Shown here piece after piece: positions 49,661 to 56,224 of a DNA stretch of 64,000 nt. Both the position numbers and the translations under genes were made by a program. Location of the stretch: assembly GCF_051903065.1 (NCBI RefSeq), contig NZ_CP178438.1; one strand, 5' to 3'. Under the pieces are notes generated by a model. The model searched no databases, was not told the origin of the DNA, and worked only from the letters and a program-made list of their open reading frames with translations. Positions within the stretch are counted from its first letter, which is position 1, and every line of letters begins with the position of its first letter. Origin of the DNA: Escherichia coli (lineage in GTDB: Bacteria > Pseudomonadota > Gammaproteobacteria > Enterobacterales > Enterobacteriaceae).

Positions 49661-50413
49661 ATGAACCTTGAAGCCTTACCAAAATATTACTCCCCAAAAT
49701 CTCCCAAATTGAGCGATGAGGCACCGGCGACAGGCTCGAGTGGTTTAACGATTACGGATGTGATGGCTGCGCAGGGGATGGTGCAGTCGAAAGCACCGCT
49801 TGGGTTTGCCTTATTTCTGGCAAAAGTTGGTGTTCAGGATCCTCAGTTTGCGATTGAAGGTCTGCTCAATTACGCGATGGCACTGGATAACCCGACATTG
49901 AACAAATTGAGTGAAGAAACCCGGTTACAGATCATCCCTTACCTTGTGAATTTTGCCTTTGCTGATTATTCCAGGTCTGCTGCAAGTAAGGCTCGCTGTG
50001 AGCATTGTGCTGGTACTGGATTTCATAATGTATTGCGCGAAGTGGTGAAACACTCCAGAAGCGGGGAATCTGTTATCAAGGAAGAGTGGGTGAAGGAACT
50101 ATGTCAGCATTGTTATGGTAAGGGAGAGGTCAGCACAGCGTGTAGAGGGTGTAAGGGGAAAGGTATTGTACTGGATGAAAAAAGAACCCGGCTTCATGGT
50201 GCGCCTGTTTATAAGGTTTGTGGGCGTTGCAATGGAAACCGGTTTAGCCGTTTACCAACCACACTGGCGCGGCATCATGTCCAGAAGCTGGTACCGGATC
50301 TGACGGATTATCAGTGGTACAAAGGATATGCAGATGTCATTGATAAACTGGTTACAAAGTGCTGGCAGGAAGAAGCATATGCAGAGACACAATTGAGAAA
50401 AGTGACAAGATAA
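49661..50413 (+). CDS. Late-gene antiterminator Q-like protein
   Basis: 250-aa ORF with zinc-binding cysteine pairs (CEHCAGTG, CQHCYGKG, CRGCKGKG, CGRCNG); immediately upstream of candidate late promoter and terminator. Confidence 0.65.
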   Translation: MNLEALPKYYSPKSPKLSDEAPATGSSGLTITDVMAAQGMVQSKAPLGFALFLAKVGVQDPQFAIEGLLNYAMALDNPTLNKLSEETRLQIIPYLVNFAFADYSRSAASKARCEHCAGTGFHNVLREVVKHSRSGESVIKEEWVKELCQHCYGKGEVSTACRGCKGKGIVLDEKRTRLHGAPVYKVCGRCNGNRFSRLPTTLARHHVQKLVPDLTDYQWYKGYADVIDKLVTKCWQEEAYAETQLRKVTR

Positions 50414-51019: not shown

Positions 51020-52072
51020 ATGAAAAATACTGTAAAAATAAACAGTGTTGATTTAATCAACGCTGATTGCCTGCATTTTATTCAGTCCCTGCCTGATGAT
51101 TCCATTGACCTGATTGTTACCGATCCGCCTTACTTCAAGGTGAAACCTAACGGTTGGGACAATCAGTGGAAAGGGGACGAAGATTACCTTAAGTGGCTGG
51201 ACCACTGTCTGGCCCAGTTCTGGCGGGTGTTGAAACCTGCCGGAAGCCTTTACCTGTTCTGTGGGCATCGCCTGGCATCTGATATTGAGATCATGATGCG
51301 TGAACGTTTCAACGTGCTTAACCATATCATCTGGGCGAAGCCGTCCGGACGTTGGAATGGGTGTAATAAAGAAAGTCTGCGCGCATATTTTCCTGCCACA
51401 GAGCGCGTTCTGTTTGCTGAACATTACCAGGGGCCATATCGCGGCAAAAGTGACGGCTATGCGGCAAAAGAAAGGGAACTCAAACAGCACATAATGGCAC
51501 CGCTGATATCGTATTTCAGGGATGCTCGTGCCGAACTGGGTATAACGGCAAAACAAATTGCCGAAGCCACAGGTAAGAAAAATATGGTTTCCCACTGGTT
51601 TGGTGCCAGTCAGTGGCAGTTGCCGAATGAGGCTGACTATCGGAAGTTACAGGCACTGTTTTCCCGTATAGCGGCAGAGAAGTTTCAGGAACAACAACTG
51701 GAACAACCACACCACCAGCTGGTGGCATCTTATGATTCACTGAATCGCAAATATTCTGAATTGCTGGATGAGTTTAAATCTCTCCGGCGCTATTTCTCCG
51801 TATCAGTCTCCGTGCCTTATACCGATGTCTGGACGCATAAGCCCGTTCAGTTCTACCCGGGTAAACATCCGTGCGAGAAACCGACGGATATGCTCCGGCA
51901 AATAATCAATGCCAGTAGTCGACCTGGTGATCTGGTTGCTGATTTCTTTATGGGATCCGGTTCCACAATAAAAGCAGCAATGGCGCTGGGGCGTCGGGCG
52001 TTAGGTGTTGAACTTGAGTCAGAGCGGTTTAATCAGACGGTGAAAGAGGTAAGTGAACTGGTGGGGAAATAA
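51020..52072 (+). CDS. Orphan DNA methyltransferase (N6/N4 class, DPPY motif)
   Basis: 350-aa ORF with DPPYF catalytic motif and C-terminal SAM-binding segment FFMGSGSTI. Confidence 0.75.
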   Translation: MKNTVKINSVDLINADCLHFIQSLPDDSIDLIVTDPPYFKVKPNGWDNQWKGDEDYLKWLDHCLAQFWRVLKPAGSLYLFCGHRLASDIEIMMRERFNVLNHIIWAKPSGRWNGCNKESLRAYFPATERVLFAEHYQGPYRGKSDGYAAKERELKQHIMAPLISYFRDARAELGITAKQIAEATGKKNMVSHWFGASQWQLPNEADYRKLQALFSRIAAEKFQEQQLEQPHHQLVASYDSLNRKYSELLDEFKSLRRYFSVSVSVPYTDVWTHKPVQFYPGKHPCEKPTDMLRQIINASSRPGDLVADFFMGSGSTIKAAMALGRRALGVELESERFNQTVKEVSELVGK

Positions 52073-52964: not shown

Positions 52965-53340
52965 GCTGGTTATCGCTGCATTCTTCTTTACTGTCATCGG
53001 TTCTTTCATCTGGTCTGCCAACCACTACTACAGCAAATATCAGCACGAAAAGAAACGTGCTGATGAGGCTGTACAAAATGCCAAATCGGCAACTGTCATT
53101 ACCAATAACGTCCTGCAATCACTGCAAATCGTCAATACAGTTCTGGAGGCTAACCAGCATGCAAAACAGCAGATCACACTGGAGTCACAGAGAACCCAGG
53201 AAGATATCAAAGTGGCTGTTGCGGATGATGATTGTGCTTCACGTCCTGTGCCTGCTGCCGCTGCTGACCGGTTGCGGAAGTACGCGAACAGTTTACGTAC
53301 CGATTCCGGCGGTACCGTTGCCAGCAAGCCTGACTACTGA
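52948..53340 (+). CDS. i-spanin (Rz-like)
   Basis: 130-aa ORF with N-terminal TM segment and coiled-coil-like body; after endolysin. Confidence 0.65.
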   Translation: MKLSYKLVIAAFFFTVIGSFIWSANHYYSKYQHEKKRADEAVQNAKSATVITNNVLQSLQIVNTVLEANQHAKQQITLESQRTQEDIKVAVADDDCASRPVPAAAADRLRKYANSLRTDSGGTVASKPDY

Positions 53341-53497
53341 AACTCCCCAGCCAGTCATTCCCGAGCCGCTGACCTATGGGGCCAGTCTGGATCTGAATGT
53401 GAGCCTGCTTTCGGCGTTGGGACAATGCAATATTGACAAAGCGGGGATTCGAAGTATCGAGATGCGCCGTAACGCTTTGCTGGCAGCAGGCAAATAG
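53225..53497 (+). CDS. o-spanin (Rz1-like lipoprotein) in alternative frame, overlapping and extending past Rz
   Basis: ATG at 53225; MMIVLHVLCLLPLLTGCGS lipobox; Pro-rich body. Confidence 0.6.
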   Translation: MMIVLHVLCLLPLLTGCGSTRTVYVPIPAVPLPASLTTETPQPVIPEPLTYGASLDLNVSLLSALGQCNIDKAGIRSIEMRRNALLAAGK

Positions 53498-53523
53498 TCC
53501 GGACAAAGAACAGGAATATATTT

Positions 53524-53874
53524 ATGCCCCCTCGAACTCCAAAAGCCTGCCGCGTTCGCGGCTGCCGTAATACCACGACAGACCCGTCAGGCTACTGCGA
53601 AAGCCACAAAAGCGAAGGCTGGAAGCAATACAAGTCAGGACAATCCCGTCATCAGCGCGGTTATGGTTCTAAGTGGGATGTTATCCGTGTGCGTGTGCTG
53701 CAACGTGACAAAGGCCTGTGTCAGTTATGTCTGCGTGCCGGTGTGGCGCGTGAAGCGAAAACCGTTGACCACATCATCCCTAAAGCACATGGCGGCACTG
53801 ATGCCGACAGTAATCTGCAGAGTCTGTGCTGGCCGTGTCATAAGGCGAAGACGGCCCGTGAACGGCTTAAGTGA
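53524..53874 (+). CDS. HNH endonuclease (terminase-associated)
   Basis: 116-aa ORF with HNH zinc motif CQLCLRAG...DHIIPKAHGG...NLQSLCWPCH. Confidence 0.8.
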   Translation: MPPRTPKACRVRGCRNTTTDPSGYCESHKSEGWKQYKSGQSRHQRGYGSKWDVIRVRVLQRDKGLCQLCLRAGVAREAKTVDHIIPKAHGGTDADSNLQSLCWPCHKAKTARERLK

Positions 53875-53999
53875 TAATAACTCTCAACTGTCTGAGGGGA
53901 GGGGCGGGTCAAATCTCTGTGACCTGACGTCTTCCGGACTGCCCGCCCCATCGTTTTTTTATACCCGCGAAAAATGAAATTTAACCAGGAGTGCCGCAT

Positions 54000-54494
54000 A
54001 TGGCTGGAACGGCGGGGCGTTCCGGGCGTCGCCCCAAGCCAACGGCGCGCAAGGCGCTGGCCGGAAACCCCGGCAAGCGAGCCCTGAACAAAGATGAACC
54101 TGTTTTTACGCCCATCAAAGGGGTTGAGCCACCGGAGTGGTTCGCAGAAGAAGATCTCCCTCTCGCTACGATCATGTGGCAACTGACAACTAAAGAACTC
54201 TGCGGTCAGGGTCTGCTGTGCGTGACTGACCTCGCGGTGCTTGAGCGGTGGTGCGTGGCCTACGAGTTCTGGCGACGTGCCGTGAAAAATATTGCCAGAC
54301 AGGGCAACACCATCACCGGTGCAATGGGCGGTATGGTCAAAAATCCGGAGCTGACCGCCAAAAAAGAACAGGAGTCCGAGATGAGCAGTACGGGGGCAAT
54401 GCTCGGACTCGACCCCAGCAGCCGCCAGCGTCTGATTGGCCTGGCGGGGCAGAAGAAAGCCACTAACCCGTTTCTGAAAATCATCGAATCATGA
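54000..54494 (+). CDS. Terminase small subunit
   Basis: ORF 53991..54494; start at [14 protein letters not shown] (AGGAG RBS); immediately upstream of large terminase. Confidence 0.7.
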
Positions 54495-56224
54495 GCCGGA
54501 AATCTTACCCCAACGTAAATGCTGCCAATCAGTATGCCCGTGATGTCGTGCGCGGAAAGATTGTGGCCTGCCAGTTTGTGATTCAGGCCTGCCAGCGCCA
54601 TCTTGATGACCTGATGGAGGAAAAAAGTAAGTCGTTTCGTTACCGCTTCGACAAGGACCTGGCTGAACGGGCCGCGAAATTTATTCAGCTGTTGCCGCAC
54701 ACCAAGGGTGAGTGGGCATTTAAACGGATGCCCATCACGCTGGAGCCGTGGCAGCTATTTGTGATCTGCTGTGCGTTTGGCTGGGTCAATAAAGGCACCC
54801 GGTTGCGCCGCTTCCGGGAGGTGTATACCGAAATTCCCCGTAAGAACGGCAAATCGGCAATCTCTGCCGGTGTTGCCCTGTATTGTTTTGCCTGTGATAA
54901 CGAGTTCGGCGCGGAAGTGTATTCCGGTGCCACGACGGAGAAACAGGCATGGGAAGTCTTTCGTCCGGCACGACTGATGTGTAAACGCACACCCATGCTG
55001 ACGGAAGCGTTCGGGATTGAGGTTAACGCCTCAAACATGAACCGTCCGGAGGATGGTGCGCGGTTTGAACCGCTGATCGGTAACCCCGGTGATGGTTCAT
55101 CACCCCACTGTGCCGTGGTGGATGAATATCACGAGCACGCCACAGATGCGCTTTACACCACGATGCTTACCGGGATGGGGGCGCGACGCCAGCCACTGAT
55201 GTGGGCCATTACCACCGCCGGGTACAACATTGAGGGGCCGTGCTACGACAAACGGCGGGAAGTCATCGAGATGCTCAACGGCTCGGTGCCCAACGATGAA
55301 CTGTTCGGGATCATCTATACCGTTGACGAAGGCGACGACTGGACCGACCCGCAGGTACTTGAAAAAGCTAACCCGAATATCGGTGTGTCGGTTTATCGCG
55401 AGTTTTTGTTAAGCCAGCAGCAACGTGCGAAAAATAACGCCCGTCTGGCAAACGTCTTTAAAACAAAACACCTCAATATCTGGGTGTCGGCGCGTTCGGC
55501 GTATTTCAACCTGGTGAGCTGGCAGAGCTGCGAGAATAAATCACTGACCCTTGAGCAGTTTGAGGGGCAGCCGTGCATTCTGGCCTTTGACCTGGCGCGT
55601 AAGCTGGATATGAACAGTATGGCGCGACTTTATACCCGCGAGATTGACGGTAAAACGCATTACTACAGTGTGGCTCCGCGCTTCTGGGTACCGTATGACA
55701 CGGTGTACAGCGTCGAGAAAAATGAAGATCGCCGGACAGCCGAACGCTTTCAGAAATGGGTGGAAATGGGCGTTCTGACCGTTACCGATGGTGCGGAGGT
55801 GGATTATCGCTACATCCTCGAGGAGGCCAAAGCGGCGAACAAAATCAGCCCGGTCAGTGAGTCACCCATCGACCCCTTCGGGGCGACCGGGCTGTCGCAT
55901 GACCTTGCGGATGAAGACCTGAACCCCATCACCATCATTCAGAACTACACCAACATGTCCGACCCGATGAAAGAGCTGGAAGCGGCAATTGAATCGGGGC
56001 GTTTTCATCATGACGGCAATCCCATCATGACCTGGTGTATCGGCAACGTGGTCGGCAAAACCATTCCGGGTAACGATGATGTGGTGAAGCCCGTCAAGGA
56101 GCAGGCGGAAAACAAAATTGATGGTGCAGTTGCGCTGATTATGGCGGTTGGCAGAGCCATGCTGTACGAGAAAGAAGACACGCTGTCTGATCACATTGAG
56201 TCCTACGGGATCCGCTCGCTTTAA
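54491..56224 (+). CDS. Terminase large subunit
   Basis: 577-aa ORF with Walker-A-like IPRKNGKSA and nuclease-domain acidic residues. Confidence 0.85.

Follow-up and report, generated by a model that had tools for sequence, protein, structure and literature searches.

A probable cos site lying between HNH endonuclease and small terminase genes in an Escherichia coli prophage of the SfV/SfI/phiP27 type

In the stretch of E. coli DNA analyzed here (64,000 nt, referred to as the window), positions 53896-53983 very probably constitute the cos packaging site of an integrated temperate phage (prophage) of the SfV/SfI/phiP27 type, as judged from sequence comparison. The assignment is founded on the identity of a 10-mer with an experimentally mapped cohesive end, the homology of the flanking genes, and the pattern of conservation among related sites. 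The site is already known, as it was mapped by experiment in 2013 in the near-identical phage SfI, and the copy in the window is an ordinary member of its group. What comparison adds is a sub-structure, consisting of an upstream box, a nick motif of the HNH type, and a downstream box linked to the small terminase subunit.

The original prediction, made from the sequence alone, had placed a possible packaging site or terminator at 53875-53999, between the genes for an HNH endonuclease and the terminase small subunit (TerS). These coordinates hold, with 53874 as the last position of the HNH ORF and the ATG of TerS at 54000, leaving an intergenic region of 125 nt. The genes for HNH, TerS, and the large terminase subunit (TerL) all lie on the + strand, with the gap sitting between the HNH and terminase genes. 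The features of the region are as follows, with a caret marking the position of a nick.

53524-53874, + strand: HNH endonuclease gene, 116 aa, Pfam HNH match with E = 5e-16, presumed accessory nuclease for cos cleavage
53896-53919, + strand: conserved upstream cos box, G-run plus TCAAATC (53909-53915), including the left arm (53901-53908) of an inverted repeat, at a cosQ-like position
53920-53935, no strand: variable spacer between the upstream box and the nick, nearly constant in length and free in sequence (24 aligned and 78 unique sites)
53936-53939, + strand: GGAC just 5' of the overhang, with the putative bottom-strand nick at 53939/53940 within AC^TG
53940-53949, + strand: cohesive end TGCCCGCCCC, 10 nt, presumed 3' overhang, identical to the SfI run-off gap, with the putative top-strand nick at 53949/53950
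53954-53960, + strand: run of seven T (T7) in an A/T-rich stretch, +5 to +11 from the cut and 4 nt past the right repeat arm
53961-53983, + strand: candidate TerS-binding box (cosB-like) TATACCCGCGAAAAATGAAATTTAA, about 12-34 bp downstream of the cut
53987-53991, + strand: AGGAG ribosome-binding site of terS, seen in the sequence 8 nt ahead of the ATG at 54000
54000-54494, + strand: small terminase subunit (TerS) of the P27 family, 164 aa, Terminase_4 match
54491-56224, + strand: large terminase subunit (TerL), 577 aa, ATPase plus nuclease, Pfam TerL_ATPase and TerL_nuclease

TerL is followed by a portal protein (Phage_portal) and then by an S78 prohead protease (Peptidase_S78), and the order HNH, TerS (Terminase_4), TerL, portal, and S78 protease is that of an HK97-type packaging module; TerL itself matches the HK97 TerL structure 6z6d_A with E = 5e-25. 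A promoter scan of the gap (53875-53999) found no terS promoter. Further upstream in the window, a 350-aa N6_N4 DNA methyltransferase (51020-52072, + strand; Pfam E = 1.6e-42) is encoded between the Q-antiterminator region of the prophage and the lysis genes, preceded by a 250-aa ORF with several CxxC motifs (49661-50413, + strand), in the position that the Q antiterminator occupies in a related E. coli prophage.

The presence of a cos site in this gap, initially offered only as a possibility, was borne out by comparison with phages whose genome ends have been determined or annotated. The termini of SfI virion DNA were sequenced directly with outward primers lying in the HNH gene and terS, revealing a 10-nt gap, 5'-TGCCCGCCCC-3', relative to the prophage, from which it was concluded that SfI packages its DNA by a cos mechanism (PMC3636060), and the same cos site is reported for SfI, SfII, SfIV, and SfV (PMC3851460). 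In the window this 10-mer occupies 53940-53949. The SfI record, which ends in ...GGACTGCCCGCCCC and starts with GTCGTTTTTTT..., has the cohesive end as its very end; the joined ends of the SfV record are identical to the window across the whole gap; and linear records of SfV/SfI-group phages start and end within this gap. A misc_feature of phiP27 named 'cos-site', CGCCCGCCCC, lies at the homologous place, and both the HK97 genome end (...CGCCGCCAAA / ...GACCGCCGCCAAA) and the ends of the virion-derived genome of Edwardsiella phage EPP-1 (...TGCCCGCCTC / ...GTACTGCCCGCCTC, restarting directly after) fall at the same aligned position as the cohesive end of the window. There are thus four independent records, SfI, phiP27, HK97, and EPP-1, with a genome end or cos feature at one aligned position. 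Over 1.4 kb surrounding the site, identity with the Shigella/E. coli phages SfV, SfI, SfII, and SfIV and with several E. coli phages amounts to 94-99%, TerS is 99-100% identical to its counterparts in the SfI/SfV/SfII/SfIV/phiP27 group, and the composite cos motif occurs once in the window and in 0 of 100 shuffles. Since the gap appears in both SfI run-off reads, the 5' ends of both template strands must be recessed, and on this ground, together with the analogy to HK97, the overhang in the SfV group would be a 3' one.

Several database records of the group begin elsewhere. The first position of the SfV record (NC_003444.1) corresponds to 53933, 7 nt ahead of the SfI-mapped overhang, that of the ST64B record corresponds to 53985, and the SfII record opens right after the HNH stop; these start positions indicate that the record boundaries are not physical genome ends. 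In addition, NC_031940.1 (Salmonella phage 118970_sal3, 77,375 bp) matches the query at two places and, at about double the genome size that is usual in the group, may be a concatenated or double record.

For the analysis of conservation, relatives found through the TerS protein were near-identical and uninformative for covariation, and a DNA-pattern scan of IMG/VR and phage records was therefore used, yielding 78 unique sites (about 80); some 20 chance matches were removed by requirements on spacing and the G-run. Twenty-four diverse sites were aligned (alignment A1) for counts of conservation and pairing. Given that TCAAATC and ACCCGCGAAA served as anchors in selecting the sites, the conservation of these two motifs within the set is partly circular; HK97, phi467, F1055, and EPP-1 are independent of this selection.

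In the 24 diverse cos regions, the AAATC of the upstream box is invariant and the G-run nearly so. TCAAATC starts 41 nt before the top-strand cut in both the window and HK97, and in EPP-1, AAATC at 39 nt represents the same spacing, so that the sub-site stands at a nearly constant distance from the cut. In HK97 and Pseudomonas phage PARCL1pr, where the end of the HNH gene is displaced upstream by about 300 nt, the box keeps this distance. Because the position of the box tracks the cut and not the HNH gene, the box belongs to cos rather than to the gene, and by its position it may function in the manner of cosQ. At the nick, no variation is seen at C53939 or G53941, A53938 is shared by at least 90% of the 24 sites, and AC^YG is found at the bottom-strand nick in all of them (24/24); the remaining bases of the overhang are C/G-rich but variable, and those around the top-strand nick are poorly conserved. 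The reach of this conservation can be seen in PARCL1pr (MZ496292.1, 1500-1620), in which the same cos layout (GGGGGAGGGGAGGGTCAAATCTCT ... ACACCCGCGAAATT) is recognizable about 310 nt downstream of the HNH gene, although its HNH protein is only 42% and its TerS 43% identical to those of the window.

The downstream half of the site behaves differently from the upstream half. The downstream box TTTTTAYACCCGCGAAA (53956-53972 and onward) is kept in Klebsiella phages, EPP-1, phiP27, and PARCL1pr, whose TerS proteins are 43-100% identical to that of the window, and among sites with a P27-type TerS in this identity range CCCGC and AAA are nearly invariant. In contrast, phi467-type phages (TerS 24% identical) and F1055 (TerS unrelated) have another sequence in place of the box, although their upstream box and nick motif are retained and their HNH proteins are 73-93% identical. 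Given that the downstream box swaps with the type of TerS and the upstream features with HNH, the downstream half travels with terS and the upstream half with the HNH gene. In Salmonella phage F1055, with a 93%-identical HNH and the upstream box and overhang kept, the unrelated TerS region begins about 13 nt past the cut, and in phages of the E. coli phi467 type the switch is right at the cut; as read from these sequences, such mosaic breakpoints suggest that recombination takes place at cos ends or close to them. The minimal TerS site of HK97 spans +15 to +29 (CTAACCCGATTTTTT), and neither the G:C pair at position 21 nor the A-tract next to it is dispensable (PMC11331095). In the window, ACCCG followed by an A-tract is found at +14 to +25, about the position of the HK97 TerS site. 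No sequence homology was detected between the TerS of the window and HK97 gp1; for a structural model of the window TerS, the best match among 48,164 chains is the HK97 TerS:DNA complex. The small terminase of EPP-1 (OQ910326.1, 48-653; 201 aa) carries an internal tandem duplication of about 37 residues, either real or an assembly artefact.

The GC-rich inverted repeat and the T-run, on which the original prediction was built, are real. A repeat search returned the arms GGGGCGGG (53901-53908) and CCCGCCCC (53942-53949), 8 nt each, 100% complementary, and 33 nt apart, the right arm falling within the cohesive end. For the longer arms first described (ggggcgggtc / gactgcccgcccc), the 8-bp core stands, and the full length pairs only with a 3-nt bulge (ctg). 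By itself the repeat is not beyond chance: when the 125 nt were dinucleotide-shuffled 5000 times, 296 of the shuffles (5.9%) contained a perfect inverted repeat of at least 8 bp within 60 nt. Nor do these features define the site: the repeat is unconserved as a structure, and the T-run lies between the cut and the candidate TerS site. P27-type sites and F1055 keep at least five consecutive T here, phi467 lacks such a run, and the corresponding sequence in HK97 is GAATTTA. We take the T-run to belong to an A/T-rich and probably bendable linker that separates the nick from the TerS box, and not to be the tail of a terminator.

The suggestion that a GC-rich hairpin followed by a T-run forms a Rho-independent terminator, ending the lysis/HNH transcript instead of or besides a cos role, has some sequence features in its favor. 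The 8-bp stem consists entirely of G/C pairs and, past the HNH stop, leads on the coding strand into T7; the folding energy of the 49-nt hairpin in isolation is -22.4 kcal/mol; and nowhere else on the + strand of the 64-kb window does a T-run follow a GC-rich 8-bp inverted repeat. Even so, a terminator is very unlikely, because a terminator scan makes no call at 53875-53999, the RNA fold of the gap is no better than that of shuffles (z = -0.82), and the 33 nt between the arms, with the T-run beginning 4 nt after the stem, depart from the compact stem-loop (loop of about 3-8 nt) with an immediate U-tract. Covariation lends it no support either: in the alignment of 24 diverse sites 66.0% of cells are paired, compared with 66.5% in shuffles, the covariation score is 0.153 versus 0.158, 285 of 500 shuffles reach the observed score, slid registers pair about equally, variants of the arms recombine freely without compensation, and the region has no Rfam family match (53000-55000, E up to 1). 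In lambdoid phages, terS and the downstream head genes share the late transcription unit, in which a strong terminator at this place would be counter-productive unless overridden by Q.

It is still less probable, to the point of being hardly credible, that terminase or HNH recognizes the inverted repeat itself, either as a cruciform or as a binding site with two-fold symmetry. In favor of this reading, the two arms match perfectly in the SfV/SfI/phiP27 type and the overhang itself supplies the right one, yet the center of symmetry of the repeat, at about 53925, is roughly 20 nt from the center of the overhang (53944.5), and members from HK97, Klebsiella, and Pseudomonas keep both boxes with only 3-6 of the 8 positions able to pair. 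Among 67 sites with the same spacing there are 20 combinations of arms, of which only that of SfV/P27 pairs at 8/8 positions and the others at 3-6. The arms also change on one side only, the left from GGGGCGGG to GGGGGAGG with either right arm, including the right arm as before, and the right from CCCGCCCC to CCCGCCTC with the left arm unchanged. A conserved hairpin or cruciform was therefore rejected, with no covariation in either the 67 same-spacing or the 24 diverse sites. The absence of covariation, the one-sided changes, and the equal pairing in slid registers imply that the complementarity comes free from a G-rich box facing a C-rich overhang, and the inverted repeat is probably an incidental by-product of this arrangement, not a selected hairpin. 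A tRNA-like element was also considered, given the superficial T-loop likeness of TCAAATC, and rejected, as the Rfam search was blank and ARAGORN found no tRNA-like gene in the window.

The remark that HNH endonucleases adjacent to terminase are often required for cos cleavage fits published work on HK97, in which the cos overhangs are 10-nt 3' extensions and the HNH protein gp74 stimulates cos cleavage in vitro (PMC9410871, PMC11331095). The HNH protein of the window has an N-terminal zinc-ribbon-like CxxxxC...CxxH motif, matches the GVE2 HNH nicking endonuclease 5h0m_A (PMC5304195) over its full length (E = 1.9e-12), is 78% identical to the phiP27 HNH, and has a core 40% identical to HK97 gp74. 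N.phiGamma and N.phiE2, of the zinc-ribbon HNH group, nick CG^GT, which is AC^CG on the other strand (PMC3592412). As placed by the mapped overhangs, the bottom-strand cos nick lies exactly at CG^GT in phiP27, HK97, and Klebsiella phages, the window and SfI having CA^GT instead, and CR^GT, equivalent to AC^YG on the top strand, comprises the only invariant bases of the nick region. Given that AC^YG corresponds to the nick specificity of homologous zinc-ribbon HNH nickases, these sequences suggest that HNH makes a sequence-specific nick in the bottom strand and TerL the second nick 10 nt away. In HK97, which nuclease cuts which strand has been left open (PMC11331095).

It is tempting to go further and propose, albeit tentatively and with more doubt than conviction, that the upstream box is a universal cos sub-site (cosQ-like, or a docking site for TerL/HNH) and that HNH itself makes the bottom-strand nick. 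Phages with small terminases that bear no sequence relationship to one another (HK97, SfV/P27, Klebsiella, and Pseudomonas phages) have the box in common, and no description of a shared upstream box or of an HNH-type nick motif was found in the searchable literature, beyond whose reach lie Kala et al. 2014 and Juhala et al. 2000. If true, bottom-strand nicking by HNH would settle the question of strand assignment in HK97.

A packaging scheme can accordingly be sketched only in conditional terms. During lytic growth, concatemeric DNA would be cut at the 53896-53983 site, the bottom strand being nicked at 53939/53940 and the top strand at 53949/53950 to give complementary 10-nt 3' overhangs, of which the right genome end would carry TGCCCGCCCC. 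If events follow the HK97 pattern, the P27-family TerS would bind TATACCCGCGAAAAATGAAATTTAA downstream of the cut, thereby arresting and positioning TerL, and TerL together with the HNH endonuclease encoded upstream would make both nicks. The G-run/TCAAATC box would be a third sub-site, probably for cleavage or the termination of packaging. The matching of proteins to boxes and of nucleases to strands in this scheme should be regarded as putative.

Compared with known systems, the site is closest to SfI, SfV, SfII, SfIV, and phiP27, with which it shares a gap identical to that of SfV, a 10-nt end identical to that of SfI, and the gene order HNH, cos, TerS (P27), TerL; phiP27 has C for T at overhang position 1 and a diverged spacer, and otherwise nothing of substance differs. 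With HK97 it has in common a 10-nt overhang (documented as 3' in HK97 and implied here by the SfI gap), a G-run and TCAAATC 41 nt before the cut, AC^YG at the bottom-strand nick (AC^CG in HK97, AC^TG here), ACCCG and an A/T tract downstream, homologous TerL and HNH core, and an HK97-type portal and protease. It differs from HK97 in that the match between the TerS proteins is at the level of fold only, the ACCCG box is 4 nt nearer the cut, and the HNH protein, with its zinc-ribbon-like N-terminus, aligns over its full length with GVE2/gamma-type nickases, whereas HK97 gp74 aligns over the HNH core only (PMC3592412). Like the zinc-ribbon HNH nickases N.phiGamma and GVE2 HNHE, the HNH of the window is encoded beside cos and terminase, and their AC^CG site matches the invariant AC^YG; these enzymes, in contrast, come from phages of Gram-positive bacteria and nick frequent 3-5 bp sites in vitro, and the site in the window is CA^GT, not CG^GT.

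Lambda cos (cosQ, cosN, cosB) shows the same order of upstream element, nick site, small-subunit site, and small-subunit gene, and is likewise cut site-specifically on concatemers. Its overhangs are 5' and 12 nt long, it lacks an HNH partner, and its small subunit is an HTH protein that binds repeated R sites, with IHF also involved. The window, on the other hand, has a 10-nt overhang (3' implied), an adjacent HNH gene, and a Terminase_4 TerS, and a repeat search found no direct repeats longer than 8 nt around the site. A lambda-type cos was rejected on account of the overhang length, the lack of long direct repeats, the Terminase_4 TerS, and the HNH neighbor. By sequence criteria, the site is assigned to the wider class of HK97-type, HNH-associated 3'-cos sites, having only the order of elements in common with lambda cos.

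Of 5426 complete E. coli genomes, 1182, or about a fifth, carry the module. Many E. coli prophages of the SfV/P27 type are cryptic, and the abundance of the module is compatible with many degraded copies, so that the site could be a cos site by descent that is inert here, in a defective prophage that never packages. We consider this unlikely, although less so than a terminator, because the plaque-forming phage SfV has exactly this cos region, the HNH, TerS, TerL, portal, and protease ORFs are all full length, and the TerS protein is 100% identical in dozens of predicted viral contigs.

As the place at which the genome would be cut for packaging, the site sets the ends of the virion chromosome in a common type of E. 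coli prophage and in Shigella serotype-converting phages. Its recognition is of use for correcting the annotation of prophages, for predicting the cos-dependent mobilization of satellites and plasmids, and for designing packaging-competent vectors. Beyond the site as already known, the comparative sub-structure, with its upstream box, HNH-type nick motif, and TerS-linked downstream box, provides testable hypotheses about HK97-type packaging.
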